The notes under the pieces were generated by a model. The model had not been told where the DNA came from. It searched no databases and worked only from the letters and a program-made list of their open reading frames with translations. Of a DNA stretch of 64,000 bases, positions 16,378-61,342 are shown in pieces. Both the position numbers and the translations under genes were made by a program. Source of the DNA: a virus (Duplodnaviria; Caudoviricetes); IMG/VR virus record IMGVR_UViG_3300037422_000298; one strand, 5' to 3'. Each line of letters begins with the position of its first letter. Within the stretch, counting starts at the first letter, position 1.

Positions 16378-17166
16378 TCAGTTCCCTCCGCCGCCGAAGA
16401 GCGTTGCACCGAAGTGCATGCCCATCGACGAGAGCGCCGGACCGCCGAGGATCTTGGTCTGCTGGACAGCCGGGTTGTCGTTCATGCCGTAGTCACCGGC
16501 ACCGACGAGAGTCGGCGGGCCGACCAGCTCGGGTCGAGCAGCACCGAAGCCGCCACCGTTCTGGATCGAACCCGGCACCGGGAAGGCCGGTTCGATCGCA
16601 ACGGCACCGAAGCCGTTCTGCATCGCCGGGAGGTTTGCCGGGACGACATAGCCCGGTTCGATCGTGGCGATGCCGAAGCCGTTACCGGCACCCGGCTGGA
16701 TCACCGCCGTCGGATCGATCACGACGCCGTTCCAACCGAACGTGCCCGGCTGTGCGGGAACCGTCGGCGTCACCGTCGGCGTCACCGTCGGGGTCACCGT
16801 CGGGGTCGCGGCAGCAGGCTTGAACAGCGACTGCTCCAGCTGACGCATGCCGTTGGTCACGAACGCGGTCGCGATCGCGGCGAGGCCCATGCGGCGCGTT
16901 CCGGGGAATGCCATCATGACGCCGCCTGCGATTCCGCCTGCGAGCAAGCCCGTCAGTTCGCTGAACTGGTGGAGCTTCGATGTCGGCTGTGTCATCGCAC
17001 GAGCGATGATCGCGGCGCCGGTACCGACACCACCGCCGATGACCGCGCCCCACATGGAGTCGCCGCCCGCTGGCTCGCCGAACTCGTCGAGACCGAACAT
17101 GTCGACCTCGCCGACGTCGGAGAAGCCGTCGGTGTCACCCAGATTGCCAAACGTGTCTTGCTTCAT
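16378..17166 (-). CDS. FG-rich membrane protein, putative inner-membrane virion protein
   Basis: MKQDTFG...; Gly-rich hydrophobic segments; about nine xFG motifs; (TPTV)n linker. Confidence 0.65.
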   Translation of the reverse strand: MKQDTFGNLGDTDGFSDVGEVDMFGLDEFGEPAGGDSMWGAVIGGGVGTGAAIIARAMTQPTSKLHQFSELTGLLAGGIAGGVMMAFPGTRRMGLAAIATAFVTNGMRQLEQSLFKPAAATPTVTPTVTPTVTPTVPAQPGTFGWNGVVIDPTAVIQPGAGNGFGIATIEPGYVVPANLPAMQNGFGAVAIEPAFPVPGSIQNGGGFGAARPELVGPPTLVGAGDYGMNDNPAVQQTKILGGPALSSMGMHFGATLFGGGGN

Positions 17167-17195
17167 GACTATCGACCTCTCTTTTGTCGTTTTGT

Positions 17196-17450
17196 TCAGC
17201 GCCGCGTCGGGCAGCGCGAAGACCCTTCTTGGAATTCCCACCCGGTGCGGCTCTTCTTGCCGTTTCGGGTACGCGTACCGACGCCGACGTAGCAGAGCTG
17301 CATCGAGCATCCCGTGCGCGGGTTCTTGACCGTCTTGCAGTCGCCGACGGCTGCGACAGCACCAAGTGCCTTGCGAGCGTGCTTGGGCTTTTTCGCCTTC
17401 GCCTTCTTCGTCGGCGTGTCGGTGCCATCGATGGTGAATACGCTCGGCAT
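17196..17450 (-). CDS. small Lys/Arg-rich Cys-containing protein
   Basis: MPSVFTIDG...KKAKAKKPKHARKALG...; start overlaps upstream stop. Confidence 0.55.
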   Translation of the reverse strand: MPSVFTIDGTDTPTKKAKAKKPKHARKALGAVAAVGDCKTVKNPRTGCSMQLCYVGVGTRTRNGKKSRTGWEFQEGSSRCPTRR

Positions 17451-18349
17451 CAGCGCCTCTGCTCCGGGCGAACGGCAATGGAGTTCATTGCCTGCATCGG
17501 GAACACCGATTCCGGCGTCGGCCACCGCTTCATGACCATTGGCGGACGCGTATCGAGCGGAACGCGCGCTTGGCGTTGAGCGTCGTGGATCGGAACGCGC
17601 GTCGCCTGGTTCATTTGCGCGATCGAGTTCGGCATGAACCGGTGCGCGATCGACGCTTGGAAGTTGCGCCGCGCCCACACGTTGTCGTCGTAGTTGAGCT
17701 TGCGGTAGTAGAACCCGTAGTCGAGGTACGGGTACTGCGGCACGTGACCAGGCCGTACTTGATGCGGCAACACTTCGTTGGCGAGCAACGGAATGCCGAA
17801 GCCGCTCTTTTTCTGCTGATCGACCGTCATCGGCGTCTCGCGTACTTGGACTTCGGTCGGTTTTCCGGTGGCCGCAATCGGGGCCGGTCCTGGCATTGCT
17901 GGAGCAGGAGGCGCGACAGTCACGCTGGGCTCACCGCCGGGGCCGTTGCAGACGATCACGCGACGAATGCCGATTTGGATCGCAACAGGTGAACCCTTGG
18001 CGAGCTGTTGCGCGGCTGCGGTGATCGTACCGACGACACCGCCGCCGGGCGGTGTATTGGGCGCGACGCGGATCTTCGACGTACCCATGCAGATCACGGC
18101 AGCCTGGCCGCGGCGGAACTGCTGCGCGACCTTGCCCGCTGCGTAGGCGATGTCCTCGGGTGCGGGATATGGCGAGACCGCCGGTCCAGCGCCGCGAACG
18201 CTGGCGATGAACGGATCGATCGTGTGCGTCGCCATGTCGACGGGTGACAGCTGACGGATCCACATCGGCTCGATCACGCTGGTCCGCGTGATGGCGTCGG
18301 GACGCCAGTGCATCGAGACGTGTTCGCTACGCGTCCACGGGACCATCAT
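17450..18349 (-). CDS. Pro-rich putative virion protein
   Basis: Palindrome + TACGTT + 6 nt + ATG; KSGFG motif. Confidence 0.6.
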   Translation of the reverse strand: MMVPWTRSEHVSMHWRPDAITRTSVIEPMWIRQLSPVDMATHTIDPFIASVRGAGPAVSPYPAPEDIAYAAGKVAQQFRRGQAAVICMGTSKIRVAPNTPPGGGVVGTITAAAQQLAKGSPVAIQIGIRRVIVCNGPGGEPSVTVAPPAPAMPGPAPIAATGKPTEVQVRETPMTVDQQKKSGFGIPLLANEVLPHQVRPGHVPQYPYLDYGFYYRKLNYDDNVWARRNFQASIAHRFMPNSIAQMNQATRVPIHDAQRQARVPLDTRPPMVMKRWPTPESVFPMQAMNSIAVRPEQRR

Positions 18350-18505
18350 GCAAACAACGTAGTCGATCGCTCGCGCGACTGCAATACAAAGCACAACGAT
18401 TTCACTGAGTTAGCCTGCAAATCGCTGCGCATCGCTGATCACTTCTGATCACGTTGGCGCCTTGATCGCGCGAGCGACTGCGCGTACGTTGCTAGGTGAG
18501 AAGAG

Positions 18506-18730
18506 ATGGCAAGACGTCGACGTCCACGTGCGTTGGGAGACATTGCAGTTCCGCAAACAGTTGAACGGCCAGTGACTCCGCGCGAGCTTGCACACTTTCT
18601 GAAGGTCAGCCCTGCGACGATCCGTCGACGTCTTGGCGAGCTACCGCATTTTCGCATCGGCAACCGGGTTCGGTTCATGCCGAGCGCGGTGCTCGCGCAC
18701 TACGCCAAGAAGACGAACGGCAGCGACTGA
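18506..18730 (+). CDS. HTH DNA-binding protein (excisionase/HTH_17-like)
   Basis: VTPRELAHFLKVSPATIRR...LPHFRIGNRVRF. Confidence 0.8.
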   Translation: MARRRRPRALGDIAVPQTVERPVTPRELAHFLKVSPATIRRRLGELPHFRIGNRVRFMPSAVLAHYAKKTNGSD

Positions 18731-19032
18731 TGCTGACTGCTACGCACTACAGAAGGCGTCCGCAACTCGGGCAGTCGATCGAGCCAAGCGTTACTGTTCC
18801 GACGGAAGTAGCCACAGCTATCGACAAGCTGACTGCAGCAGCAAACACGCTCGTCGCGGCCGTCTCGAACTTCAAGCTCAAGATCGAACATGACGTGATC
18901 TTGCCGCCGCCGAGTGACACCGTCGCGCGTTTGCTGCCCGTTGCGCTCACGCTCGCGATCTTCATGACCGGTGCGGTGATGTTGACGAAGAAAGTTCTGA
19001 CCGCAGATCCGGGACCGGTACGCAGTCGTTAG
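18730..19032 (+). CDS. small membrane protein
   Basis: MLTATHY...LGQ leader; C-terminal TM LLPVALTLAIFMTGAVML. Confidence 0.55.
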   Translation: MLTATHYRRRPQLGQSIEPSVTVPTEVATAIDKLTAAANTLVAAVSNFKLKIEHDVILPPPSDTVARLLPVALTLAIFMTGAVMLTKKVLTADPGPVRSR

Positions 19033-19361
19033 TCTGCAATCGCGTCGATGCGACGAAGAATGCCTTCGAGGTCTTCGATCGTCGTTAGCAGATCCAAGTA
19101 GTCGTCACCGTCGATCCGTGCACCGCTACTATCAGCCAGTGCTGCCGCGTAGCGCAGCTCGCCGAGCGTGCGACGGAGATTGCGGTATGAGAAGTCGCTC
19201 GACATCAGCCGGTAACAGGGACTGTTCTGTCCGCCGTGCCAGTCACTGCAGATCTCGACGGCGCTCGCGAGGTCGCCGTCCCACACGTGCACGACTTTCC
19301 CTGTGCGCGTGTTCTCGTAGACGACGTAGCCGTTTTCGTCTTGGTAGTAGCGAATCGGCAT
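19029..19361 (-). CDS. hypothetical protein
   Basis: 110 aa ORF, DWHGGQNS motif. Confidence 0.55.
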   Translation of the reverse strand: MPIRYYQDENGYVVYENTRTGKVVHVWDGDLASAVEICSDWHGGQNSPCYRLMSSDFSYRNLRRTLGELRYAAALADSSGARIDGDDYLDLLTTIEDLEGILRRIDAIAD

Positions 19362-19364
19362 TAC

Positions 19365-19676
19365 TCACCGACGACGACGTCGACGCGGGCTGGTGATTGT
19401 ACAGCGGGCTCGAAACGCATCCGAGGCGTGACTGTACCGTCGAAACTGTTCTGAATCGAACGCTGCACCACGCTGATCGGCGCCAATCTCTTCCGCTTCG
19501 AGCACGCCCATCCAGTACGCAAGCGCGCTGAACTTGTCGAACGCCGTTCTGCACTGACCGGCGCGAGCCGTCGCGATGGTTTGCCGCGATAGATTCTTCA
19601 CGGCGAGGTTCGCCGTCTTCATGCGCGTGACATGATCTTCTGCAGGCGAAGCGAAGTTGCGGCGGCGACGCTTCAT
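19365..19676 (-). CDS. small basic protein
   Basis: Starts MKRRRR, ends PRRRRRR. Confidence 0.55.
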   Translation of the reverse strand: MKRRRRNFASPAEDHVTRMKTANLAVKNLSRQTIATARAGQCRTAFDKFSALAYWMGVLEAEEIGADQRGAAFDSEQFRRYSHASDAFRARCTITSPRRRRRR

Positions 19677-19686
19677 CGAAGCGCCT

Positions 19687-20391
19687 TTAGCGGCGGCAGA
19701 GTCGAACTGCTGTGCGCTGACTACGCGTTGCACGTCGGACGAGCGCGCGCGCTTGCTGCACGAGGCTGTCTTCCATCGCTTGCTCACCTTGGACCGTTGC
19801 GACGGTGCCTTCGGCGATCGCATCGGTGTAGTGCTCGATCGAACCACAGCGGTTGCGCTTCGAGATGCGATCGGCCGTCTTGAGGATGTTCGACGCCGAA
19901 CGGTACCAGCCGCGCGACTCCTCAGCGTGCTCCTGTGGAGCCAGGCCGAGACCGCCGCGCCGAGCGCCCTTGACGACGGAGCCGACGACGACTGCGCCGA
20001 CGACCGTGCCGCCGATCGCGACCCACATCATCGGATTCTTGACGTCGAAGAACTTCTTCTTGATACCCGATGCTGTTGCTTGCTGCGGGAACTCCTTGGC
20101 GAGCGTGTCGATGTCGGCTTGCGGAAGACCCGCGGTACACGACGCGAACGAACCGGCGCCACGAAGACAGATGCGCGCGCTGTCGATGGTAGGCGCGGTC
20201 GTGAGTAGAGCCTCGACATCGGACTTCGCCGCTTGGTCGGGAAACTCTGTGCGAAGCTGATCGATATCGGGCTGAGGCAGTCCAGCTGTGCACGACGCGA
20301 ACGAACCGGCGCCGCGGATGCAGATACGCGCGCTGTCGATCGTCGGCGCTGGAATTTGCCCGAACCCGGTCGTGTAGTGGCTGATCAACAT
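19687..20391 (-). CDS. membrane-anchored virion protein family A
   Basis: MLISHYTTGFGQ leader; two ~41-aa Cys-pair repeats; KKFFDVKNPMMW+TM. Confidence 0.7.
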   Translation of the reverse strand: MLISHYTTGFGQIPAPTIDSARICIRGAGSFASCTAGLPQPDIDQLRTEFPDQAAKSDVEALLTTAPTIDSARICLRGAGSFASCTAGLPQADIDTLAKEFPQQATASGIKKKFFDVKNPMMWVAIGGTVVGAVVVGSVVKGARRGGLGLAPQEHAEESRGWYRSASNILKTADRISKRNRCGSIEHYTDAIAEGTVATVQGEQAMEDSLVQQARALVRRATRSQRTAVRLCRR

Positions 20392-20439
20392 AGGCTGACC
20401 CTATCATCGATCGCGTGCGCGATCGACCGTGTCGATTGG

Positions 20440-21447
20440 CTAACGGCGCGCACGTCGCCGACGTCGGCGTCCAACTGTGGCAGCGGGTGCGGCTGCAGCT
20501 GCAGGTGCCGCTGCTGCCGGTGCTGCGGCAGCGGCACCCGCCGCTCCACCTTTCACGAGTGCGCCAATGACGACGACACCGAGAATGCCGCCGCCGATCG
20601 CGACCCACATGACTGGGTTGTTGACGCGGAAGAACTTCTTCTTTTTGGCAGCCTCGGCGACAACTTTCTTGGCGGCCTCTTTCCCGGCGGCCTTCTGCTC
20701 GGGAACCGACTTGCCTTCTGCTTTGGCGACCGCGACAGCATTGTTGGCCGCGATGGCAGCGTCGCGCGCGACAGCAGGATCCTTGAGCAGCGAATCGTCG
20801 ACATCCTTGATGACGTCGTTGTCACGTTGAACTTCGGTGAGCGCTTCTTGAACGACCTCTTTGTTGTCGGGAGCGACGACTTCATCCAAGATCGTCGAGG
20901 CGCACCTGTGCGACGGATCGTCCCAAACGGTGCCGAATGGACAAACGCAGATGCCGCTGGTGTCGAGCGCCGCACCCGTCGATGGATCGATGTTCTGCCC
21001 CGTTGCGCATGCGACTGATGGCGGTTGCGGGACAGGCGTGGACGGCCCCGACTGTGTGAAGAACGCCTTGATCTTGTCGATGACGCTGTCTTCCTGCGCG
21101 GGTTGAGCTGGCGCGCCGCCAGTCAGAGCAATTGTTTCAGCAAGGGCTGTCGAGAGCGCGATGACAGTGTCTGCGTCGAACGCGAGCCCTTCTGCGGTCA
21201 GCTGACCGGTTGCGGCGCGGTTTAGGACAGGATTGACCTTTTGTCCGTTCTCTAACAGAAGATCGATCGCGCGGCGCGCAGCGATTGGAAGTTGCCCCAT
21301 CGTTTCGCTCGTCAACTGACCGTTGACGGTAACGTGGCTTAGTGGATCAGCGATGAACGCGTTGATGTTCTTCTGCAGAAGTGAAACCGTCTCGGCGGTC
21401 GGCGTGCTGAACTGCCCGAACGGCTGCACGTAGCTGATGCTCAACAT
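20440..21447 (-). CDS. membrane-anchored virion protein family A
   Basis: MLSISYVQPFGQ leader; KKFFRVNNPVMW+TM; poly-Arg tail. Confidence 0.7.
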   Translation of the reverse strand: MLSISYVQPFGQFSTPTAETVSLLQKNINAFIADPLSHVTVNGQLTSETMGQLPIAARRAIDLLLENGQKVNPVLNRAATGQLTAEGLAFDADTVIALSTALAETIALTGGAPAQPAQEDSVIDKIKAFFTQSGPSTPVPQPPSVACATGQNIDPSTGAALDTSGICVCPFGTVWDDPSHRCASTILDEVVAPDNKEVVQEALTEVQRDNDVIKDVDDSLLKDPAVARDAAIAANNAVAVAKAEGKSVPEQKAAGKEAAKKVVAEAAKKKKFFRVNNPVMWVAIGGGILGVVVIGALVKGGAAGAAAAAPAAAAPAAAAAPAATVGRRRRRRARR

Positions 21448-21489
21448 GCCACGACCCTATCACCGATCGCGTGCGCGATCGAGTTACGC

Positions 21490-21888
21490 CTATCGTCGCC
21501 GCGATCGGCGACTCATCGTCGACGCGCGCGCTGCATTTGCTGAACTCTTGAGCATCGAACCGAGGACGGTGACACCGACGACAGCGCCACCAATCGCGAT
21601 CCACATCATCGGGTTTTTGACGTCGAAGAACTTTTTGGGAGTGACGCTCGGTGTCGTGTCCGTGTTGACGGTCGGAGCGTCAGCTGGCTGCGGGACGGTG
21701 GGGGCAGCAGCTTGTTGCGGAAATTCCTTGGCGAGCTGATCGATGTCGGCTTGCGGTAACCGTGCTGTGCACGTCTTGAACGACGTGCCGAGTCGAAGAC
21801 AGTCACGTGACGTCTCGATGTTGGGCGCGTCAACTTCGAATTCGATCTCGTTTTGACCGAAATTTGACGTGAACGCGATTGCCAACAT
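21490..21888 (-). CDS. membrane-anchored virion protein family A
   Basis: MLAIAFTSNFGQ leader; one copy of Cys-pair repeat; KKFFDVKNPMMW+TM. Confidence 0.7.
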   Translation of the reverse strand: MLAIAFTSNFGQNEIEFEVDAPNIETSRDCLRLGTSFKTCTARLPQADIDQLAKEFPQQAAAPTVPQPADAPTVNTDTTPSVTPKKFFDVKNPMMWIAIGGAVVGVTVLGSMLKSSANAARASTMSRRSRRR

Positions 21889-21893
21889 GATTT

Positions 21894-22199
21894 CTACCGG
21901 CGACGGCGTTTCGTACGCCGTCCGGCAATCGGCGGCGTTGGATGGTCTGGATCACCGACGCTTTCGATCGAACACGCGACGTATTCGCGGCCTGTCGAAC
22001 TTTTTCCTTGGCTGCACTGATACATCGGAATCCGTCCGCCCTCACACTCCAGATCGACGAGCGCGAGCCACTTGCCGGGGCCGCTTGCGATGCTGCGAGC
22101 GTCACGTGCAGCTGCAGACCAGCCGCTACGACTCAACGGGTGCGTCCGGTTGTTACCTTGGACGGTTCCGACGAGGATTTTGCACTTTGCTGCTGCCAC
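21894..22199 (-). CDS. small Cys-containing basic protein (GTG start inferred)
   Basis: Ends IAGRRTKRRRR. Confidence 0.5.
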   Translation of the reverse strand: MAAAKCKILVGTVQGNNRTHPLSRSGWSAAARDARSIASGPGKWLALVDLECEGGRIPMYQCSQGKSSTGREYVACSIESVGDPDHPTPPIAGRRTKRRRR

Positions 22200-22200
22200 G

Positions 22201-22389
22201 TCACTTCCTTCTGCGCTTCGCGCGACGACCTGCAACGGTCGAGCGTGTACGTGGAATGATCTGCAGGTAACGCTCGCGGCGTGCATAGCGCTTCGCGGCT
22301 TTCTTCGTCTTGAAGCACGTCACGAGCCGCGCAGGTGTCTGACCCGGCGGGACGGTGTACACACAGAATTCTTTCTTGGCTTGCGGCAT
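22201..22389 (-). CDS. small basic protein
   Basis: MPQAKKEFC..., ends VAGRRAKRRRK. Confidence 0.5.
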   Translation of the reverse strand: MPQAKKEFCVYTVPPGQTPARLVTCFKTKKAAKRYARRERYLQIIPRTRSTVAGRRAKRRRK

Positions 22390-22403
22390 TTCGCTTTCAC
22401 AGC

Positions 22404-23204
22404 TCAGGCAACAAAATCCATGTGCTTGGCATACGGCGCTTCGCGACCGAACATGCTGCCGGGCAGCGTCGTATCGAGCGGTACCCATCGCGACGGACGT
22501 GTCTTCGGGAGACCGGCCATGCCGTAGATGTGCGCCCAGTCGCTGCTCTTCGTCGGTGCCGTGATGCGAAACTTCGCCGGGATACCGTTGAGCGTGAGGA
22601 GCGTCGTCGACACGATCGTATGCCCGTCGCAGTCTTCACCACCGAATTCGACGGTGCGCCAAGGCGCTTGGAACAAGTCGACACCCTCGACGTCGCCGCC
22701 GGGCATCTTCACGGGCGCGACGTCACCCGTATAGCGGATGTTGTTCTTCGTCCAGTTGTAGACGGCTTCGCTCTCGCAGAGTCCATCGCGTGCAGGACAG
22801 TTCGCGCCCTTCACACGGAACTTGCGTTTGCCAACCGTGACGTCGCGGGTACCGTTGCCAGTGATTGCGAGCGCCAGCTCGCGCATCTGTGGATTCTGGA
22901 CGCCCTTCCATACGAGGTCTTGCAGGATGCCGACGCGCTGCTCGATTGGCATCTCTGGATCGTAGTGGTGTGTGAGCGTCATGCCGCCCTGTTTCACGCG
23001 CGCCTGCACACGGCCGAGCGTGTCGCGCAGCGTAGCGGTCCGGCGTCGAGCAGCGATCCCGTATGCGATCGCTCCTCCGATCACAGCGATCCCGCCAGCG
23101 ATCATCGCGGCGATAGCGATCTTCTCGCTGTTGGTCGTCGTGAGACCGTCGGTGGCGGCGAGCGCTCCGTTGGTGCGCCTACGCGCGAGCGCGCTACTGA
23201 TCAT
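22404..23204 (-). CDS. membrane-anchored transglutaminase-like cysteine enzyme (protease or cross-linker)
   Basis: N-terminal TM; YNW.KNNIRY..D, GEDCDG (Cys), WAHIY (His), WVPLDTT (Asp). Confidence 0.8.
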   Translation of the reverse strand: MISSALARRRTNGALAATDGLTTTNSEKIAIAAMIAGGIAVIGGAIAYGIAARRRTATLRDTLGRVQARVKQGGMTLTHHYDPEMPIEQRVGILQDLVWKGVQNPQMRELALAITGNGTRDVTVGKRKFRVKGANCPARDGLCESEAVYNWTKNNIRYTGDVAPVKMPGGDVEGVDLFQAPWRTVEFGGEDCDGHTIVSTTLLTLNGIPAKFRITAPTKSSDWAHIYGMAGLPKTRPSRWVPLDTTLPGSMFGREAPYAKHMDFVA

Positions 23205-23208
23205 GCGC

Positions 23209-23766: not shown

Positions 23767-23859
23767 GCATCTAGCATCGCATGTTCATTTGACAACGCGC
23801 GCATCCGACGGGTAGCTTGAAAGTGTCGAGATCGCGCGCGCGATCGACGTGGAGCCCAC

Positions 23860-24852: not shown

Positions 24853-24858
24853 CGCGAC

Positions 24859-26775
24859 ATGATTCTCACGCACTACGATAGCGGTGGCTTGCTCGGCGGT
24901 GTGACGGCCGTCGGCGGCACCGTCGGCGTGAAACAACTACAAGAGCAGCTTCGTCGCATCGCGTACGTCACTCAGAAAACGAAGCTCGATCCCGCGCAGT
25001 ACGACGGGAAGATGACGCTCTCGACGATCATCGCGCTCGCGAATGCGGCACCAGTGGTCGGGACAGCGATTCACCCGATTGTTGGCGAAGCTCTCAATGT
25101 CGTCGGACTGATCAAGGCGCCGATCAAAAAGATTCCGTACGGCGATACGGTGATCGAGTTCGTCCTGTCACCGTGGATCATCGATCAGATCTACGACGCG
25201 ATCTTGGGCATCATTCGGGTGATTCCCGGCGGCAGCGGTCCAGCGTCGGCGATCGACAAAGCAGTCAAGGCCGTCAAGGAGGCGCTCGCGAGCGCTGCAG
25301 CACCGATCGCGGCAGCGCTCGTAGCTTTTCGCCCGAAGTCGAGCGGCTTTTTTGGCGTCGAGACGGGCTTCGTGTACTCGGGCGGCTTCGGTATCGCTAC
25401 GACACTGAACACGGTGGCGATCCAAGCCGTCGCGATCCCGTCGATCGCGACAGCAGTTCCTGACTCGAACAAAGGACCGAACCCGCCTCCGGGATACACG
25501 TGGGTCGACAATCCGCCTGTACCTGGTCACTGGGAGCGCGTACGCGTCGGTCAAACGCCGATGCCCGGACCTGGAACCGCGACGGTCGTGATCCGTGAAC
25601 ATCCGCCGGGCGCGCCGAACGTTGTTTTCAACGCGCCAAAACCGTTGCCGCCACCGGTACCGGGCCAGCCGGGCGTCATTCGCAGCCATCAAGAGTGGCC
25701 CAAAGGCAAAGAGATCGTCTCTGCAGACTGGGGCAAATCGAAGACGTATTACGGTCGCGCGCTCAAGGAGAATCTCGCGAAGCGTGATCGCGACATGTGG
25801 GAGAAGTACAAAAACAACAGTGCGGCCTCGATCGGCAAACCAGAGATTAGTGTCCGCAACGGCGTGATCGCGTTCTTGGTCTTTCAGGGTTTCGACAAGT
25901 CACGTATGGGCGCGTTCTGGGACGAGCGCACGCAGATGCTCAAGATCACCCCAGTGCCCGCACCGTCATCGTCAGGGCCGCTAGATTTCGTTTCGGATGC
26001 GGTGTCGAGCGCAGCTGACGCTATCAGTGACGCCGTCGGCGCTGCGGCTGGTGCGATTTCCGAGATTGCCCAAGACACATGGAACTGGATCGCCGAAAAC
26101 GCCGATGACGTTTATGCAGCGATCAAGAAGTACGGCTGCGTGCTCGTCAACAATGACATCGTGGTCGCGGCTACAGCTGCTGGAGCAGGTGTGGTTGCGT
26201 CACCCGCCGCAAGCGCGGCTGTGATCACAGGCGCGCAAGCAGGTAAGGCAGCCTGTGCAGTTCTTGAAGTCGCCGAGGCACTCTACGCTATCTACAAGCT
26301 GCTCTCGATGGAGTTTCCGAAGCCGCCGCCGTTGACTACGCCGACTCCACCATTGAAGATCGCCGACAAATTCATCGGCAAGCTCGGATTCTTCCGGCCG
26401 TTACTGCAACTCAAACCTGACGTCCCGCTTGCGAAGTCGCGTTACCCAGACGGTGCGATCGCGGCATTCGATGAGAAGATCCAGCGCTACCGAATCGCGA
26501 TTCCGGTCGGGACGAAGTTCGTGCCGCTGTCCACGACGCCAGGTTTTGGTGACGCTACGCCATTCGGTGCTGACGCTTCGCATTTCGAGGTTGATCAAGC
26601 GGACAAGGCGCCGATCAAAGTGCCGGTGGTGCCGTTGACGGTGTTCCAGCATCAGACCGATACGTTGCCGATCACCAAAAATCCGTTGTTCTGGACCGCG
26701 ATCGGTGTTGGTGTTGTGGCTGTTGGTGGCGCGAGTTACGCGCTCTACCGGCATCGGCGACGTTTGACAAGGTAG
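24859..26775 (+). CDS. membrane-anchored virion protein family B (638 aa)
   Basis: YPDGAIAAF...YRIAIP; LPITKNPLFW+TM+RHRRR. Confidence 0.7.
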   Translation: MILTHYDSGGLLGGVTAVGGTVGVKQLQEQLRRIAYVTQKTKLDPAQYDGKMTLSTIIALANAAPVVGTAIHPIVGEALNVVGLIKAPIKKIPYGDTVIEFVLSPWIIDQIYDAILGIIRVIPGGSGPASAIDKAVKAVKEALASAAAPIAAALVAFRPKSSGFFGVETGFVYSGGFGIATTLNTVAIQAVAIPSIATAVPDSNKGPNPPPGYTWVDNPPVPGHWERVRVGQTPMPGPGTATVVIREHPPGAPNVVFNAPKPLPPPVPGQPGVIRSHQEWPKGKEIVSADWGKSKTYYGRALKENLAKRDRDMWEKYKNNSAASIGKPEISVRNGVIAFLVFQGFDKSRMGAFWDERTQMLKITPVPAPSSSGPLDFVSDAVSSAADAISDAVGAAAGAISEIAQDTWNWIAENADDVYAAIKKYGCVLVNNDIVVAATAAGAGVVASPAASAAVITGAQAGKAACAVLEVAEALYAIYKLLSMEFPKPPPLTTPTPPLKIADKFIGKLGFFRPLLQLKPDVPLAKSRYPDGAIAAFDEKIQRYRIAIPVGTKFVPLSTTPGFGDATPFGADASHFEVDQADKAPIKVPVVPLTVFQHQTDTLPITKNPLFWTAIGVGVVAVGGASYALYRHRRRLTR

Positions 26776-26839
26776 CAGCTGACCGCGTAGCTTGAAGGTG
26801 TCAAGATCGCGCGCGCGATCGACCCAAGGAGCACTGCGG

Positions 26840-27937
26840 ATGCTGACCACTCAGTTCTATGGACCGTCGAGCGCATCCGGCTTCTACGGTGCTTCCGGTT
26901 TCTACGGAGCACACCTCTCCGGTGCAAGTTTCTACGGCTTCCACGACTACTACAACGCAGGCTTTGGCGCGATCCAATCGACGCCTGCGACGGCCGCGCT
27001 GCAGAAGTACTTGGTGAGCGTCAAGAAGCTCCCGGCCGACAAGGCTACGGGCGTGATGAACGACGCCACGATGGCGGTGATCTTCAATCTGCTGATCCAA
27101 GCCGCCGATACGGTCGCCAAAATCCCACTGCTGCCGCAGGACGTTCGCGACGGCATCAACACAGTCGTCACCGCGCTCAAGGACGCCGACAAGAAGATCC
27201 GAGACGTCACGTTCGGCCAAGCATCACTCTCGACGGTGATCAGTCAGTTCACGAACATCCAGGCGATCGTGCGCCAAGCAGGCAACGCGATCTCGTCGGG
27301 TGCTGGTGACACTGCTGCTGACGCCATGTTGAAGGCACGCGACGCAGTCTACAACGCGGTCGCAGGCAAAGCGGCGCTCATCCAGAAGGCGATCCCGATT
27401 CTCATTCCGGGGCTGAAACCGGCTGCGACGACAGGGTTCACGATTCGGCCAGACATCACAAAGATGATCATCGGGTCGAAGTTTGTCGCGACGACAACCA
27501 AGCCAGCTGCGAGCGCGGTCAAACCCGGCACGATCTACGCGCTCAGCAAGAAGCTCACGAAGGCAGCAGGTGGTCAACCGCGATATCGCATCGCAGTCCC
27601 GCGCGGCGCTGGTTCTGGATTTGGGGGCATCGGCGTCATGGAAGACGGCGTGCTCGGGAGCTGCATCTTCGGTGACTGCGGTCTCGGTCAGGTAGCACCG
27701 CTCGTCGAGAGCACGCCGCCCGGCGGGGCAGTAACACCGCCAGCGACACCTGGTCGATCGGTCACCGAGACCGAGTTGGAGAAGCAGACTGGAACGCTAC
27801 CGTTCTTCAAAAAGCCGCTGTTCTGGGTAGCAGTCGTCGGCGGTGTCGCTGTTGCAGGTGGCGGTTACTACTATGTGCGCCGTCGCAAGAGCGCTGCACC
27901 TGCTGCCGCAGCAGCACCAGCAAAGGCGGCATACTGA
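26840..27937 (+). CDS. membrane-anchored virion protein family B
   Basis: MLTTQFYG with repeated ASGFYG; PGTIYA...YRIAVP; TETELEKQTGTLPFFKKPLFW+TM. Confidence 0.7.
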   Translation: MLTTQFYGPSSASGFYGASGFYGAHLSGASFYGFHDYYNAGFGAIQSTPATAALQKYLVSVKKLPADKATGVMNDATMAVIFNLLIQAADTVAKIPLLPQDVRDGINTVVTALKDADKKIRDVTFGQASLSTVISQFTNIQAIVRQAGNAISSGAGDTAADAMLKARDAVYNAVAGKAALIQKAIPILIPGLKPAATTGFTIRPDITKMIIGSKFVATTTKPAASAVKPGTIYALSKKLTKAAGGQPRYRIAVPRGAGSGFGGIGVMEDGVLGSCIFGDCGLGQVAPLVESTPPGGAVTPPATPGRSVTETELEKQTGTLPFFKKPLFWVAVVGGVAVAGGGYYYVRRRKSAAPAAAAAPAKAAY

Positions 27938-29448
27938 TGCTGGCGCAGATGTTCACACCGGCTACGGTTTCGACGCAGGCACCGTCGACGCCGGGGACGG
28001 TGCCGGGGACGACGCCGCCATCAACGCCCTCAACACCGCCGCCGTCACACGGGTCTGCCTTCACGGCAATGCCAGGTGTGTTCACAAAGCTACCTGCACC
28101 ATCGGCACCGCCAGCGCTCACGTTCGTATGTACGCGCAGTGCGTGCACGAGCACCCACGCAGCAACAGATCTCGCGTTTCGTACGCTGCAGACGCTGATC
28201 AACATGGCCAGCGAGAAGATCGGAAGGTCGGTCTTCGGCGTCAATGTCAGCAGGGTCGTGATTCCCGTCGACGGACGAATCACTGCGGCGACGCTTCAAG
28301 CGTATCTGCCGATCTCGCGCGCTATCGGTGGAAGACTCGCGATCTTCGACTTCACGCCCGATACCAAGTACCTCGCTACGAACGCGCAGATCTTCGCGTA
28401 CGAGATCGCAAAGTACCTCGGCGTCACGTGGGTCGAGAAGACCGCAACGGTCGCAGGTCACTGGGCGCGTCTGCCCGCAGGACAATCGCCCCGGTTGCCG
28501 ACGCTGCCGACGGCATCATCGCGTCCGATGCCACTGCCATTGCCAACACCGGCTACGCCCACGGCGCCACCTCCACTCTGTCCGATGTCGTGGATGATTC
28601 CGACGTCAGCAGGATGTCTCTATCCGATCGGGACGATCGCGACGTACAGCGCGTCACGCGGAAAGTGGCGCATCGCCGTGACGCTCGAAGCGCTCCAGAA
28701 CATTCCCCAGCAGATCATGACGGCGCCTCCTCCACCGCCGCCATCACCGCTGATCACGAGCGCAGCTGGTCGCGCGAGCTTCGGTTGGGCGTTTCACGGC
28801 GCGACACACCAGGCAGTAGCTGAATCGGATCAGCCGCCGCAAGGCGTGCAGCAGGTCGATGAAGTCACGTTTGCTACGGCGGTCGGTGAACCGGTCACGC
28901 AACAGCCCGTGCCGCAGCCGCAACCGCCACAGCCGCAGCCTCCACAAGCGGAGCCGTCACGCGTCGACGTGGGACCGACGACAGTGGGGCCGACGGCACC
29001 TGGACCAACGACGGTCGAACCGACGGTGATCCAGCCGGTGATCCAGCCGGTGATCCAACCAACTGTGCCGAAGCAGCGCTACGCGGGATGCATCGCGCGC
29101 TTCAACAAGACACGCCGCGTGTTCTCGATCTACTGCCCTATCGGTACAGCAACGGCAACGCCGGGTCTCGGTGTTGCAGACGAAGAGGGGTTTCGTTGCC
29201 TCTACGGCAACTGCTACGGGCTCGGCGCCGATCCTGTCACGCCCCCAGTTCCAGCAGGCTTCACCAAGGTCGCCGAAACGACTTCGCTGCCTGGTGCAGG
29301 TGAAACGCCTGCGGGTGAAGAGAAAGACAAGTTCTTCCGTGCGAACAATCCACTCATGTGGTTTTTGTTCGTGGGTACTGCTGCGGCCGTCGGCGGCGGT
29401 AGTTACTGGCTCATTCGTCGACGACGGGCAGCCAAGGCGGCCTGGTAA
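27937..29448 (+). CDS. Pro-rich membrane-anchored virion protein family B
   Basis: Two copies of the Y.GTIA..WRIA module; KFFRANNPLMW+TM+RRRR. Confidence 0.7.
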   Translation: MLAQMFTPATVSTQAPSTPGTVPGTTPPSTPSTPPPSHGSAFTAMPGVFTKLPAPSAPPALTFVCTRSACTSTHAATDLAFRTLQTLINMASEKIGRSVFGVNVSRVVIPVDGRITAATLQAYLPISRAIGGRLAIFDFTPDTKYLATNAQIFAYEIAKYLGVTWVEKTATVAGHWARLPAGQSPRLPTLPTASSRPMPLPLPTPATPTAPPPLCPMSWMIPTSAGCLYPIGTIATYSASRGKWRIAVTLEALQNIPQQIMTAPPPPPPSPLITSAAGRASFGWAFHGATHQAVAESDQPPQGVQQVDEVTFATAVGEPVTQQPVPQPQPPQPQPPQAEPSRVDVGPTTVGPTAPGPTTVEPTVIQPVIQPVIQPTVPKQRYAGCIARFNKTRRVFSIYCPIGTATATPGLGVADEEGFRCLYGNCYGLGADPVTPPVPAGFTKVAETTSLPGAGETPAGEEKDKFFRANNPLMWFLFVGTAAAVGGGSYWLIRRRRAAKAAW

Positions 29449-29472
29449 CACCACAACCAAGGATCGTTGACC

Positions 29473-30261
29473 ATGCTGGCACAGTTCCTTCCACAGCAGC
29501 AGTTCCCGCAACAGCAGTTCCCGCAACAGCAGTTCCCGCAACAGCAGTTCCCGCAACAGCAAGCAACTGCCGCGGGCTCGTATCCACCAGGTACGGTCGT
29601 CGCACGCAGCGCCAAAACCGGACGGTTCCGCGTTGCGATTCCGACGGCGTTGATGTCGCAATATGTGGCGCCGTCGGCGACGATCGCGACGAGCACGACC
29701 ACGCCACCGGGTTTCGATCCACAGCGATTCCCGGCACAGCAGAACATGCAGTTCCCCCAATCGGGGTTCCCACAGCAGCAGTTTCCTCAACCAGGATTTC
29801 CGCAGCAACAGTTCCCGCAACAGCCGTTCCCGCAGCAGCCGTTCCCGCAGCAGCCGCAGTTCCAACCGGGATTCTTTCCTGACGAAGAGGAATTCTTTGG
29901 GCTCGGTCAGACGCCCGGCGTCACGGCGGACTCGACCGAAGTTCCGACGAACGTCTCAACTCCACCCGTCACGACGACAGGAACGGTTGCACCGACCATC
30001 ACCGAAGCGGACTTCGAAAAGAAGACCGGGCAGGTTCCGTTCTTCAAGAAGCCGCTGTTCTGGGTCGTCGTTGCAGGTGTCGCGATCGTCGGTGGCGGGA
30101 TCTGGTTCATGCGGCGCAAGACTGTCGCCGCTGGACTCGGTGGCGCGTGCCCCGAGGGTCAGCTCTGGATCGAATCGCGCGAAACCTGCGTCAACGCCAA
30201 GAAGTACTGGGATGATCCAGAAGGCACACTTCGCAAGCTGGGGCCGCGTCGGAGGCGCTGA
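29473..30261 (+). CDS. membrane-anchored virion protein family B with QQFP repeats
   Basis: (QQQFP)n and QQPFP tracts; YPPGTVVA...FRVAIP; TEADFEKKTGQVPFFKKPLFW+TM. Confidence 0.7.
   Translation: MLAQFLPQQQFPQQQFPQQQFPQQQFPQQQATAAGSYPPGTVVARSAKTGRFRVAIPTALMSQYVAPSATIATSTTTPPGFDPQRFPAQQNMQFPQSGFPQQQFPQPGFPQQQFPQQPFPQQPFPQQPQFQPGFFPDEEEFFGLGQTPGVTADSTEVPTNVSTPPVTTTGTVAPTITEADFEKKTGQVPFFKKPLFWVVVAGVAIVGGGIWFMRRKTVAAGLGGACPEGQLWIESRETCVNAKKYWDDPEGTLRKLGPRRRR
29488..29560 (+). repeat. 15-bp coding tandem repeat (QQQFP)
   Basis: CAGCAGTTCCCGCAA repeated about four times; related tract 29750-29880. Confidence 0.85.
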
Positions 30262-30264
30262 ACC

Positions 30265-30390
30265 GTGGCTGCGATCGAAGAACGTAAGGGCGTGCTGTTG
30301 GGGATCGCTGGTCTCCTCCTCTCGGCAGGCATCATGATCGCGATGGGCTTCCACAAGCCCGTCCGACGACACGCGCGTACGCGGCGCTAA
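30265..30390 (+). CDS. 41-aa single-TM microprotein, not in ORF track
   Basis: GTG..AAIEERKGVLLGIAGLLLSAGIMIAMGFHKPVRRHARTRR* fills the gap. Confidence 0.55.
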   Translation: MAAIEERKGVLLGIAGLLLSAGIMIAMGFHKPVRRHARTRR

Positions 30391-30427
30391 CCTGCGATCG
30401 CGCGCGCGATCGTGATACAGTTACCGC

Positions 30428-31084
30428 GTGTTTCAGGCGTCACGCATGCCGACGTTCGCGACGTCAGTCGGGGTTGCACCGTCGACTACGACGATGCAGC
30501 TTTCTGATGCCTGTGACCCTGTAACGGCGTGCAGTCCTGCGGCGACTGCAATTTGGCGGTCACAGAGAAGCGGCATGCCGATGTTGGTGCCCGCGGCCGT
30601 GCCGCAAGCACCGCCAACGCCGCGACCTGCGCCTGAAGCACTGCCGATGTTCCTACCGGAACCGGAAATCACTCGCGCCCATCCGAGGTTCTATATGCCC
30701 TACGCATCACTCGAAGATCTGCGTTCCGCTGCTGGCCTCGGGATCATCAACGAGTCCGACGCATGGCTGACCGGACGTCCGTACGGCCTGCCGGGGACCG
30801 CCACCGTGCGGTTGATGCAGCGTCCGGGTGGCTATCACAGCCCGAACGGCTACCACTACGACGCCACGATGGTCGGCGGTGGATTCGGCGACGCCGATAC
30901 GCAAGCAATCAACACGACGATGCAGCAGCTCGTCGTCGCGCAGCAAGCACAGCAAGCGCATCTCAAGCGCATCGCGTTCTGGCAGGCCTTGACGGGTGGT
31001 CTCGTCGTCGGCTCGATCGCAGTCGGTACGGTTCTCGGGATCGTCGGCGCTGTTCGTCAGCAGCGTCGTCGTGGAGGTCGGTGA
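30428..31084 (+). CDS. membrane-anchored virion protein with capsid-like N-terminal peptide
   Basis: VGVAPSTTT motif; GGFG; C-terminal TM + RRR; palindrome + TGATACAGT + 6 nt + GTG. Confidence 0.65.
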   Translation: MFQASRMPTFATSVGVAPSTTTMQLSDACDPVTACSPAATAIWRSQRSGMPMLVPAAVPQAPPTPRPAPEALPMFLPEPEITRAHPRFYMPYASLEDLRSAAGLGIINESDAWLTGRPYGLPGTATVRLMQRPGGYHSPNGYHYDATMVGGGFGDADTQAINTTMQQLVVAQQAQQAHLKRIAFWQALTGGLVVGSIAVGTVLGIVGAVRQQRRRGGR

Positions 31085-31536
31085 TGCTCGGTATCTACGT
31101 CAACGAGATGCAACGCAGTGTCGGCTTCGGCAATGCGGGCGGCTACTACCGAACCCGCATCGTTCCGTACAGACACTTCGCGCCGTACCGCCCCGGCGCG
31201 ATCGCCGTCGATCGCCGCACGCACCTCGGTGACGTTCCCAACGACTTCGAAGCATCAGTCGATCTGCAGTACATCCCCGTTCGACAGGGTTGGTACTACG
31301 GGCAGCCGGTCGACGGTCGCGGGTACCCCGACAGGTCCAATGGGTTCGGTCAAGCGCCACCGACGACACCTACGACGTCCACCGAGCTGGATCGCATTGC
31401 GAAGCTCGAACGCACGCAGACGATCCTTCAAATCGTCTCGACGATTTCGATCGCGGCGATTGCATCACTGACGATCGCCAAGGCCGTCGTCTCCGTTCGA
31501 CGCCGTCGATTCGGGCTCACGGCGGAAGAAGATTGA
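31084..31536 (+). CDS. membrane-anchored virion protein
   Basis: MLGIY...VGFGN leader; NGFGQ; TM followed by RRRRFG. Confidence 0.6.
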   Translation: MLGIYVNEMQRSVGFGNAGGYYRTRIVPYRHFAPYRPGAIAVDRRTHLGDVPNDFEASVDLQYIPVRQGWYYGQPVDGRGYPDRSNGFGQAPPTTPTTSTELDRIAKLERTQTILQIVSTISIAAIASLTIAKAVVSVRRRRFGLTAEED

Positions 31537-31541
31537 TCGTT

Positions 31542-31781
31542 ATGCCACGACGTAAGATCAAAGGTCAGTTCTGTGAAAAGACGCTCGCGCCCAAGACGGC
31601 GTTCGACAAGCGGAGCTTTCGCTATAAGAAGTCCGGCAAGAGCTGGCTGCTCGTCGGTTGTCCAACAGGCAAGTGGAACGCGAAGACGAACTACTGTCGT
31701 GTTGGGACACGTGCGCACAAACTTCTCGCGGCTCGCCGCGGTACAAGTTGTCCAACCAACGCCAAGCGCGTCGTGAAATAA
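31542..31781 (+). CDS. small basic Cys-containing protein
   Basis: MPRRKIKGQFC...; Lys/Arg rich. Confidence 0.55.
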   Translation: MPRRKIKGQFCEKTLAPKTAFDKRSFRYKKSGKSWLLVGCPTGKWNAKTNYCRVGTRAHKLLAARRGTSCPTNAKRVVK

Positions 31782-31790
31782 GGAGATCTG

Positions 31791-32324
31791 ATGCTCACCG
31801 TCAACTACAGCGGTTTTGGTACGACTCTCAGTCCTTCGCAGCAGGCCGCGCAGCCGCGATACACGTGCGCCGAGCGAAACACCAAGGGTCGATGCATGAG
31901 GTGGGTCCAGAGAGCATCAGGGTTTGGATGGGGGTTCGGCGCAGCACTCACCGAAGACGAGATCATCAAGCTCGCGCAAGAAGTCTCCGAGAAGGCGAAT
32001 GCAAACGGCGCCGCCGTTCTCGAAGTCACGAACATCTTCCGGCTGATCGATGACCAGGCGAGCCAGGATGCGGTCGCGCTCCGCGCGGCGGGACTCGTCG
32101 CGGCGGTGGCAGGCAAGGCAACCTCGATCCAGGCGAGCCTTGCGGAGGCGCGACTGCTGGGTGCGCCTCCGCCGCTCGTGTCACCGACGGAGCCTGCACC
32201 TGCAACACCCACAACGACGGTGGCAGGTCTCTCGCGTGGTGCGAAGATCGGAATCGGCGTTGCTGCCGCTGGCCTGCTCGCGGTGGGACTGACGCTCGGT
32301 ATCAGTGCAGCGCGGCGTCGGTGA
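31791..32324 (+). CDS. membrane-anchored virion protein family C
   Basis: AGGAG SD; MLTVNYSGFG; LA.EV.EK.N..G.....VTNIFRL domain; TM + RRR. Confidence 0.65.
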   Translation: MLTVNYSGFGTTLSPSQQAAQPRYTCAERNTKGRCMRWVQRASGFGWGFGAALTEDEIIKLAQEVSEKANANGAAVLEVTNIFRLIDDQASQDAVALRAAGLVAAVAGKATSIQASLAEARLLGAPPPLVSPTEPAPATPTTTVAGLSRGAKIGIGVAAAGLLAVGLTLGISAARRR

Positions 32325-32330
32325 TCGTAC

Positions 32331-33068
32331 ATGCTGAGCGTGACCATCACGCGTCCTTGGAACGACACGACGCTGGGTAGAGGCAACTGCGGTTCACGCA
32401 GCTACCCAAACGTCGGTGACAACACGATCCAAGCGATCACGGCGGCGCTTCAGCAGGGCGGTGCGATCATCACAGGCAACAACCCGTGGGATGTCGATAC
32501 GCGTCAGCACGGCGTCAAGTTGCGCGGTACGTGGGACCCTAGTTCTCAAATACTCGTCGTGGAAATCATCGACAGCGCCTTCCTTGCGCCGTGTTCCAGA
32601 GTGGTAAGCGCGGTCGACACCCAACTCAGGCAGGTCATTGCGGCCAATCCATCGCCACAGTCTGGCTTGCCGAGCATCACACTCGCCGCTGATCTCGAAT
32701 CGCTCGCCAACGAAGTTGCAGAAAAGAGCAATCCATCAGGCGTCTCCGAAGTCAACGTCACCAACATTTTTCGGCTCACGCCGAGCGCCGCTGACCGCAA
32801 CGCCATCGCGCTGCGAGCGATAGCAATCGTAAGTGGGGTGTCGGCGGGGAAAGTTGCTTCGATTCAAGCGAGCTTGGCAGAAGCTAACGAGCTGAGTCCC
32901 ATAACGACCGACGAGCCTATATTGCCCTCGACGCCAGAAGCCGTCGTTGAACCGACAGCCTCTGGCATGTCGCTTGGCGCCAAGGTTGGTATCGGCGCCG
33001 CGATCGCGGGTGCGTTGGTGCTCACGGCTTTGGTGATTCGCCGCGCTGTTGGTACGATGCGGCCGTGA
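32331..33068 (+). CDS. membrane-anchored virion protein family C
   Basis: Shares VTNIFRL...A(V/I)ALRA...SIQASLAEA domain and GAK.GIG TM with 31791..32324. Confidence 0.65.
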   Translation: MLSVTITRPWNDTTLGRGNCGSRSYPNVGDNTIQAITAALQQGGAIITGNNPWDVDTRQHGVKLRGTWDPSSQILVVEIIDSAFLAPCSRVVSAVDTQLRQVIAANPSPQSGLPSITLAADLESLANEVAEKSNPSGVSEVNVTNIFRLTPSAADRNAIALRAIAIVSGVSAGKVASIQASLAEANELSPITTDEPILPSTPEAVVEPTASGMSLGAKVGIGAAIAGALVLTALVIRRAVGTMRP

Positions 33069-46300: not shown

Positions 46301-46307
46301 CATCTAG

Positions 46308-46339: not shown

Positions 46340-46361
46340 TCACATCGCTGAGGAGAGTGTT

Positions 46362-61337: not shown

Positions 61338-61342
61338 CGAAC

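Follow-up and report, generated by a model that had tools for sequence, protein, structure and literature searches.

What do the short leaders and the Gly-Phe-Gly and Gly-Leu-Gly motifs on the proteins of one viral gene block do, and which enzyme might read them? The block spans positions 16378-33068 of a 64,000-nt stretch of DNA (the window) from IMG/VR virus record IMGVR_UViG_3300037422_000298. An earlier note on this DNA had proposed that FG and LG motifs, including an 11-residue leader running from Met-Leu to Phe-Gly, form a Gly-directed maturation code in virion proteins. The motif excess is real and far beyond chance, and the motifs look like a conserved signal. Judging from its conservation and predicted fold, a transglutaminase-like enzyme encoded within the block (22404-23204) is a credible reader of the signal and a candidate protease. 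The extension of the code to a JAB protease, a ubiquitin-like protein (Ubl) and an E1 enzyme found no support.

Leaders, joints and anchors in block 16378-33068

The window has a G+C content of 61% and an overall phage-like character; its recognizable genes include an endolysin-like gene, endonuclease VII, vWA proteins, ThiF/E1 and tRNA genes. A simple codon-usage gene caller gave 90 genes, 21 inside the block and 69 outside. Most block proteins have no Pfam, PHROG or NCBIfam match, and most end in a common module made up of a K-N/K-P-x-[FM]-W motif, a Gly-rich hydrophobic helix and an Arg cluster. Searches of the anchored proteins against Pfam and NCBIfam returned sub-threshold matches only, except for one LPXTG_anchor match that was barely over the cut-off and covered just the transmembrane (TM) helix and basic tail. 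The leader at the N-terminus has the pattern M-[LMI]-x4-10-[LF]-G. The block genes concerned are:

16378-17166 (-), Gly-rich conserved module protein, N-terminus MKQDTFGNLG-D; GFG-[IA] three times in tandem (residues 163, 185 and 206)
17450-18349 (-), conserved module protein; SGFG-I at residue 183
18730-19032 (+), small TM protein, leader MLTATHYRRRPQLG-Q; the orthologue in relative L019 starts MLAATHSELG-Q
19687-20391 (-), C-terminally anchored protein, leader MLISHYTTGFG-Q; GLG joint after the anchor, then an extra C-terminal domain
20440-21447 (-), C-terminally anchored protein, leader MLSISYVQPFG-Q; anchor KKFFRVNNPVMW and TM helix, end RRRRRRARR
21490-21888 (-), C-terminally anchored protein, leader MLAIAFTSNFG-Q
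23860-24852 (+), paralogue A, ML start; GLG-Q at residues 75 and 185, and GFG-M at 266 joining a post-anchor domain
24859-26775 (+), paralogue B (638 residues), leader MILTHYDSGGLLG-G; SSGFFG/GFG ends the conserved N-terminal domain, GFG-D and PFG-A precede the stalk and anchor
26840-27937 (+), paralogue C; long leader of Gly and aromatic residues with its GFG-A end at residue 43; stalk and anchor preceded by CGLG-Q (GLG-Q at residues 281-284)
27937-29448 (+), paralogue D, ML start; PGLG-V and YGLG-A before the anchor, both kept in orthologues
29473-30261 (+), anchor-family paralogue with QQQFP repeats, ML start; FFGLG-Q before the stalk, and post-anchor AGLG-G joining a small CPEGQxW domain
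30446-31084 (+), small C-terminally anchored protein; SVG-VAPSTTTM in the N-terminal region, internal GLG and GFG
31084-31536 (+), ML protein, leader MLGIYVNEMQRSVGFG-N; GFG-Q at residue 87, TM helix and RRRR near the C-terminus
31791-32324 (+), C-terminally anchored protein, leader MLTVNYSGFG-T; GFGWGFG-A at residues 44-50
32331-33068 (+), paralogue of the 31791 protein; ML start (MLSVTITRPW...) without an [LF]G leader

All five N-termini quoted in the earlier note are present, at the first-possible ATG of their frames. Three of these leaders have exactly 11 residues, are hydrophobic at positions 2, 6 and 10 and end in FG-Q; the other two have 10 and 14 residues, so the quoted length is right for part of the set. 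Met-Leu starts occur in 11 of the 21 block genes and in one of the 69 genes elsewhere in the window (Fisher p 9e-8). Beyond those quoted earlier they belong to the genes at 23860, 26840, 27937, 29473, 31084 and 32331, and the gene at 24859 starts Met-Ile. Because the second codon is variously CTG, TTG, CTC or CTT, the signal lies at the protein level. The codons beneath the motifs vary also, and such variable codons rule out an origin of the Met-Leu start and GFG at the DNA level or in the start context.

Motif counts were tested against within-protein shuffles that preserve the composition of each protein. In the block GFG was observed 16 times where 1.7 were expected (z 11), GLG nine times (2.6 expected), G[FL]G followed by Q, A, D or T 14 times (1.3 expected) and FG 35 times (16.6 expected). 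Plain LG showed no enrichment (34 against 27), and the 69 genes outside the block had no excess (GFG 3 against 2.6). The pervasive FG/LG motifs of the earlier note are thus borne out for GFG, GLG and FG and not for plain LG; the check that it had suggested, motif enrichment in one gene set against another, gave an excess in the 21 block genes and none in the 69 others. The sites observed follow the pattern [G/S/T]-[LF]-G, in which P2 is Phe or Leu. In the window Gln follows the motif in four of the five quoted leaders and at four internal GLG sites.

The earlier note had also placed internal motifs at domain boundaries, often just before the anchor, and this is correct for the five paralogues at 23860, 24859, 26840, 27937 and 29473, which have a longer stalk-and-anchor module in common. 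All five have an [LF]G column that precedes the K-N/K-P-x-F-W motif, TM helix and RRRR tail by about 38-52 residues. After this column come hydrophobic-x-Glu-[VI], a Pro/Thr-rich spacer and then TE-x-E-x-EK-x-TG-x-LP-x-[YF]K. G[LF]G also forms the joint where domains are appended beyond the anchor (19687, 23860, 29473 and one orthologue).

Relatives were collected with the gene of a 249-residue core protein (15440-16189) as query, which gave 16 IMG/VR loci at 54-97% identity, and with the transglutaminase-like gene, which gave four loci; lineage-wide statistics on leaders and anchors use 17 non-redundant loci. Genomes of the lineage are 85-221 kb long and have terminal repeats. One relative is a complete genome of 85.6 kb (G003, L027) with terminal repeats and encoded integrases.

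In the closest relatives (L017-L020) the 249-residue marker is 89-97% identical and the anchored proteins of window 19687-29448 only 43-51%; the trio at 19687-21888 has no orthologue there. Such fast divergence suggests exposure to host or defence pressure. Within these orthologues the ML start, the [LF]G junction and the internal G[LF]G columns persist amid gapped, variable Pro/Thr-rich linkers, a pattern that reads as purifying selection on the motif columns. Leader length varies from 7 to 44 residues across orthologues while the [LF]G junction before the conserved domain is retained, and orthologues of the 16378-17166 protein start M..LG.VDLLGLN.FG. The residue after the motif Gly is not conserved, being A, G, D, S, R or L in orthologues and distant relatives.

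The tags recur in relatives down to 54% identity on the core gene, mostly on C-terminally anchored proteins. In distant relatives, clusters of small C-terminally anchored proteins adjoin the transglutaminase-like gene, with N-termini that include MLTLGLG-D, MITMNGLG-A, MLQFSPLG-S, MLSFSLLG-A and MMFLGLSGLG-D. Across the 17 loci, 37% of the C-terminal-TM proteins have [LF]G within residues 3-16, against 13% of the rest (p 2e-9), and an ML start is found in 27% and 5%, respectively (p 1e-11); in later sequence windows of the same C-terminal-TM proteins [LF]G is at background frequency. Counted by family, 18 of 53 C-terminal-TM families have the leader against 11 of 187 others (p 6e-7; 240 families). 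The position of the leader Gly peaks at residues 8-9 in the relatives and at 11 in this window, and internal G[FL]G was found 111 times in the relatives' C-terminal-TM proteins (36 expected). Leader-plus-anchor proteins of the complete 85.6-kb relative are also found away from its main module. There, two more of them (MLMARLHGLG... and MLFATSTGLD...) lie at 18087-19801 after a small membrane protein, which is possibly the one with the Pfam ABC_trans_CmpB match (E 1.3e-9), although that pairing is a guess.

The transglutaminase-like enzyme and phage SSIP-1

The gene of the candidate reader lies among those of the tagged proteins:

22404-23204 (-), membrane-anchored transglutaminase-fold cysteine enzyme, candidate leader and joint protease

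The protein has a Gly/Ala-rich N-terminal TM helix (about residues 28-52), a basic stretch, L62-G63 and a catalytic domain with C191, H224 and D243. More basic residues lie on the domain side of the TM anchor, and there is no signal peptide. It matches Pfam PF01841 Transglut_core (E 2.9e-5; 24.7 bits against a cut-off of 23) and is a core gene of the lineage with 504 homologues. The three catalytic residues are invariant in 73 homologues (also in a set of 16), and G63, likewise invariant in the 73, is conserved as they are. An [LF]G about 10 residues past the TM helix is present in 103 of 110 homologues, mostly as G-[LF]-G followed by Arg.

In an AlphaFold2 (AF2) model (pLDDT 88) L62-G63 lies at the junction of the long N-terminal helix and the globular domain. 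Foldseek neighbours of the model are PNGase, the putative cysteine protease 3isr, LapG, TglA and the pseudomurein isopeptidases PeiW/PeiP; the probability is 1.00 for the first four, with low TM-scores (0.29-0.43). A profile search against PDB sequences gave no match, LapG included. A complex prediction that paired the enzyme domain (residues 64-265) with the N-terminal 40 residues of the 20440 protein scored 0.08 and is neutral on binding. The earlier note had offered either this enzyme or the JAB as the one specificity behind all sites. The half of the proposal that concerns this enzyme is credible, as it is a core gene with an invariant triad, a LapG-like fold and a motif of its own; the half that concerns the JAB found no support.

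Among 50,697 phage records the sole match of the enzyme is gp34 of Salisaeta phage SSIP-1 (E 5e-6); for a distant member of the lineage the match to gp34 reaches 1e-18. SSIP-1 has no tail; it has an internal membrane, a T=49 capsid and a 44-kb genome (PMC6356626, PMC6260650). In the SSIP-1 record gp34 is annotated as a structural protein. Its TM anchor is C-terminal, whereas that of the window enzyme is N-terminal, and it carries RARGMGE, with G-M-G, between catalytic domain and anchor. In both architectures, opposite as they are, the motif separates the anchor from the catalytic domain, and the simplest explanation of this would be self-release. The C-terminally anchored neighbours ORF36, gp37, ORF52 and gp53 of SSIP-1 have G[LM]G at residues 17-34, and G[LMF]G is in excess in the late proteins (12 against 4.1 expected) and not in the rest of the genome (2 against 3.6). 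Beyond gp34, no gene is detectably common to SSIP-1 and the lineage. We know of no report of processing of SSIP-1 proteins.

From the annotation of gp34 and gene order we infer that the block proteins are virion components, and the SSIP-1 link and gene order point to tailless particles. The protein used as marker was examined for a capsid fold:

15440-16189 (-), beta-rich, strongly codon-biased core protein of 249 residues, N-terminus MAGAVG-VAPSTTT

It has 535 homologues, all unnamed. An AF2 model from 15 sequences had a pLDDT of 42, too low for fold assignment, and the ESM Atlas gave weak leads only, to PRD1 P2/P3 families (0.76-0.77). In hhalign comparisons of the family with SSIP-1 gp44-47 nothing was significant (best gp46, E 0.026, probability 1.9%). 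The family and gp46 both read aromatic/Val-Gly-[IV]-Ala-Pro and then [IL]-A-D-[FW]-x-D-x-K-L, which is a lead only. With tblastn, the 249-residue protein and the 638-residue paralogue found nothing in the phage records.

The core protein starts MAG(A/T)VG-VAP(S/G)TTT, and the small C-terminally anchored protein has VG-VAPxTTT(M/L)xL after a leader of 0-28 residues. This pairing is seen in the window (15440-16189 and 30446-31084) and in L005, L006, L009, L014, L017 and L018. The element may be a common docking strand or a common processing site.

What the signal may do

The fast-evolving block proteins carry a bipartite signature, a short N-terminal leader and a C-terminal membrane anchor. The leader consists of Met, usually Leu, 4-10 residues with hydrophobic positions 2, 6 and 10, and then [LF]-Gly; G-[LF]-G also marks the joints before the stalk-and-anchor module and before domains appended past the anchor. 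In the explanation we favour, [LF]-Gly would be the recognition and cleavage site of the 22404-23204 enzyme, which would trim leaders, may also sever joints during particle assembly, and would free its own catalytic domain from the anchor at L62-G63. A sorting or docking role of the leader may come first. We give an even chance to such a code of leaders and cut sites read by this enzyme, with or without a preceding sorting role. That any peptide bond is cut, and cut by this enzyme, is suggested by the sequences.

If the tag is read by the enzyme as a cut or sorting signal, these viruses would have a maturation step comparable to those known from adenovirus, poxviruses and T4, and the enzyme behind it would be unrelated. 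A simple sequence rule would then predict the particle proteome of hundreds of uncultured viruses (there are about 500 homologues each of the enzyme and the core protein), and the rule would be directly testable in cultured phage SSIP-1 or in Escherichia coli. The constant leader and constant anchor around fast-changing middles would make a natural display scaffold.

Several observations weigh against cleavage. The conserved Met-Leu start and the 2/6/10 hydrophobic spacing exceed the needs of a mere cut site, which suggests that the leader has its own function and might never be removed. G[LF]G joints occur on both sides of the anchor, and a protease on one face of the membrane could not reach both after insertion. 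The conserved hydrophobic-x-Glu-[VI] after the pre-anchor [LF]G looks structured rather than like a free linker, and the recurrence of that motif among paralogues is partly common ancestry. Some block proteins lack the leader (32331) or have only the ML start (27937 and 29473). The transglutaminase fold also includes cross-linkers, glycanases and cell-wall isopeptidases.

Some of these points would fit an uncleaved sorting, docking or assembly motif, in which leader and joints bind a common partner and steer tail-anchored proteins to the viral membrane with no proteolysis; the partner could be the capsid shell, the scaffold, a membrane-insertion factor or the transglutaminase-like protein itself. 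We consider this the main rival, less probable but to be taken seriously. The start and spacing conserved beyond cut-site needs and the structured element after the pre-anchor motif favour it, as do the strict pairing of the leader with a C-terminal TM anchor, even outside the main module of the complete relative, and the possible docking strand VG-VAPxTTT in both the core protein and the small TM protein. In phage 80alpha the scaffold leader is needed for assembly and its cleavage is dispensable (PMC5744158). Docking alone leaves unexplained, however, why an enzyme with an invariant triad is co-conserved and why the motif sits exactly between anchor and domain in two opposite architectures, and variable leaders with a fixed junction are typical of removed propeptides. 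The enzyme could instead transfer acyl groups, either by cross-linking the Gln after the motif (GFG-Q, GLG-Q) to Lys or by sortase-like cutting and ligation to a capsid or lipid amine. Transglutaminase-fold members do form thioester intermediates, Gln follows most of the quoted leaders and the four internal GLG sites, and the C-terminal motif, TM helix and Arg tail resemble sortase/exosortase signals, with the weak LPXTG_anchor matches confined to TM helix and tail. But Gln after Gly is not conserved in orthologues and distant relatives, and the LPXTG or PEP motif and an N-terminal Sec signal are absent; we hold acyl transfer to be improbable, and the classical Gln-donor version was rejected as a main model on the first of these grounds. 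An equally improbable elaboration would have 8-11-residue leaders and anchors direct proteins to the viral membrane in a widespread and uncultured lineage of large bacterial viruses, which would probably lack a tail and contain a membrane, with the enzyme cutting G-[LF]-G and perhaps ligating Gly ends, sortase-like, to capsid or lipid. Such ligation, if true, would be a protein-anchoring chemistry not described for any virus.

A duller account is that the motifs stem from composition and recent duplication: low-complexity linkers of paralogues, rich in Gly, Phe and Pro, would inflate G[FL]G, ML would be start context, and the enzyme would have an unrelated role in lysis, entry or the cell wall, like PeiW. 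Several block proteins are indeed paralogues with a common stalk-and-anchor module, some motifs lie in Gly/aromatic repeats (the 26840 N-terminus and the three tandem units in 16378), and PeiW/PeiP are among the fold neighbours. We nevertheless find this account unlikely. The composition-preserving shuffles still leave z 11, the codons vary, the signal holds over 240 families, in distant relatives and in SSIP-1, and the enzyme's own motif is an invariant aligned column; moreover, a separate endolysin-like gene with a PG_binding_1-type (peptidoglycan-binding) N-terminus exists at 13225-14160. The last account gives the reading of FG, on the Ubl precursor and on virion proteins alike, to the JAB of an accessory module, with the Gly ends feeding E1:

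45887-48954 (+), accessory module: JAB 45887-46300, Ubl-like precursor 46362-46742, ThiF/E1 48346-48954

In its favour, the JAMM motif HSHPGSGVPGPSGTD of the JAB is intact, and the Ubl sequence RPKTAFG with a variable extension implies an FG-directed processing step in this genome. Contrary to the earlier note, the Ubl does not end in FG: 33 residues come after RPKTAFG in the window and one Arg in relative L025, which is ordinary behaviour for a Ubl precursor beside its own JAB. JAB, Ubl and E1 occur together in 221-kb and 138-kb relatives (G001, G002). The complete 85.6-kb relative has none of the three, and a look at two partial relatives turned up none either; all of these keep the leaders and the enzyme. 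Because the complete relative retains the tags without the module, module and tag system are not coupled, and the suggested link of the JAB to the tags is not supported. Across the lineage the module is confined to the larger members (138-221 kb). SSIP-1, too, has the motif excess and gp34. The speculation that exposed Gly termini serve as E1 substrates found no support; a leader cut would leave the Gly on the discarded peptide. We rate a JAB-based code as highly improbable.

Neighbouring genes and known systems

Several further features were recorded in the window and its relatives. The genes at 19687, 20440, 22404, 23860, 26840 and 30446 have a palindrome, GATCGCGC-N-CGCGATC, 15-50 nt upstream, and in many cases TGATAGGGT or TGATAC comes after it. 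The palindrome looks like a common late promoter or operator. Shine-Dalgarno-like sequences come next, so the mRNAs concerned are not leaderless. Copies of the palindrome lie within:

20392-20440, palindrome copy
21448-21500, palindrome copy
23205-23260, palindrome copy
23800-23859, palindrome copy
26780-26839, palindrome copy
30380-30445, palindrome copy

Arg-rich tails without a TM helix (RCPTRR, RPEQRR, GRRAKRRRK) end the products of 17196-17450, 17450-18349 and 22201-22389, all on the (-) strand. Since TM-less proteins carry it too, the basic C-terminus is not solely a membrane topology signal; Arg-rich C-termini may contact DNA. The 841-residue protein at 34209-36734 (-) lacks a Walker motif and combines a region rich in Pro, Gln and Gly with a charged, very long coiled coil and an acidic tail. 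Its counterpart adjoins the module in all relatives (about 700 residues there), and it may be a scaffold or size-determining protein.

The 781-residue vWA-type protein at 6892-9237 (-) is 34% identical over its full length to Ackermannviridae-like tailed-phage proteins (phrog_2426, E 1e-175), and by this similarity the gene is common to an unrelated phage group. A conserved N-terminus, MAT(R/I)LKNIL.F, is found with differing C-terminal parts at 10553-12958 (-), at 62731-63435 (+) and in L013 (10816-12543), as would be expected of exchangeable spike or fibre proteins. At 61263-62367 lie five tRNA-Leu genes with five anticodons (taa, gag, cag, tag, caa) in two tight groups.

One relative of the module (L021; CP070815.1, 3.705-3.726 Mb) lies inside a Gemmatimonadota metagenome-assembled genome (MAG) chromosome, beside metabolic genes, with a core protein 72% identical. 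It is a provirus, integrated or decayed, or else a chimera of the assembly, and its placement is a host lead. In the complete 85.6-kb relative 72 proteins were scanned, and the best 25 of 31 Pfam and the best 25 of 50 PHROG families were inspected. The best-ranked families concern replication, nucleotide metabolism, integrases, lysis and pilin-like proteins; no terminase, portal, HK97 capsid or tail-sheath family is among the best 25 of either set. A 550-residue Walker-A protein of this genome was considered as packaging ATPase and dropped because it resembles a primase-helicase (DUF5906/VapE-like).

The comparison with adenovirus, poxviruses and African swine fever virus (ASFV) drawn in the earlier note is apt for function and not for enzyme fold or P2 residue. 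Adenain, poxvirus I7 and ASFV pS273R act with Gly at P1, each a cysteine protease packaged in or acting on the particle that trims membrane and core proteins. They belong to clan CE, cut sites of the forms (M/I/L)XGG-X, AG-X and GG-X with Gly or Ala at P2, and serve eukaryote-infecting viruses. Here the enzyme has a transglutaminase fold rather than that of clan CE, the sites have Phe or Leu at P2 and are not of the (M/I/L)XGG-X or (M/I/L)XGX-G type, and no adenain-like family is among the best 25 of 31 Pfam families of the complete relative.

In T4, a capsid targeting sequence of about 10 residues on unrelated proteins directs them into the particle and ends in the consensus of the prohead protease gp21, which removes it. 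The window leader is likewise short, N-terminal and common to unrelated proteins. The T4 protease differs in being a serine protease of assemblin fold with (L/I)-x-Glu sites, and its targets are soluble internal proteins of a tailed phage; leaders here end in [LF]-G rather than at such sites, and a prohead protease is absent from the best 25 of 31 Pfam and 25 of 50 PHROG families of the complete relative. Double-glycine leaders of the C39 type have 15-30 residues and end in GG, GA or GS, whereas those described here mostly have 8-11 and end in [LF]-G; no C39 or ABC exporter family is among the same 25 Pfam families. Atg8/Atg4 and prokaryotic Ubl-JAB systems process a precursor extension, and the window Ubl-like protein (46362-46742), with JAB and E1 beside it, likewise has FG and a disposable extension, as Atg8 has FG|R. 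Ribosomal protein L27-type leaders, which are substrates of the protease Prp, begin Met-Leu.

In staphylococcal phage 80alpha the same Prp, a host cysteine protease, removes a leader of 13-14 residues from non-homologous capsid and scaffold proteins (PMC5744158). The Prp system differs in its Phe|Ala site, host-encoded enzyme, other fold, restriction to Firmicutes and lack of membrane anchors. Of the sortase/exosortase signal the anchored proteins have the tripartite C-terminus (K-N/K-P-x-F-W motif, Gly-rich TM helix and RRRR tail) and no LPXTG or PEP motif or N-terminal Sec signal. LapG, which has a transglutaminase fold and Cys-His-Asp triad (BTLCP type) as the window enzyme does, cuts at a small-residue site. 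Its site-specific cut takes the N-terminal retention module off the adhesin LapA and leaves the new N-terminus AGPSAAG... (PMC3032545). LapG is periplasmic, soluble, calcium-dependent and LapD-regulated and has one substrate class with an Ala-Ala site, whereas the window enzyme is TM-anchored and viral, with many putative substrates and an [LF]-G site.

SSIP-1 differs from the lineage in its circular 44-kb genome, against 85-221-kb genomes with terminal repeats, and in its leaders, which are longer (17-34 residues), Arg-rich and mostly of the form G-M/L-G. To our knowledge no maturation protease has been described for tailless, membrane-containing bacterial viruses of the PRD1/SSIP-1 kind. The lineage has in common with SSIP-1 a gp34 homologue and a neighbouring cluster of tagged membrane proteins, and the system is probably, as read from these genomes, a virus maturation system that has not been described before.

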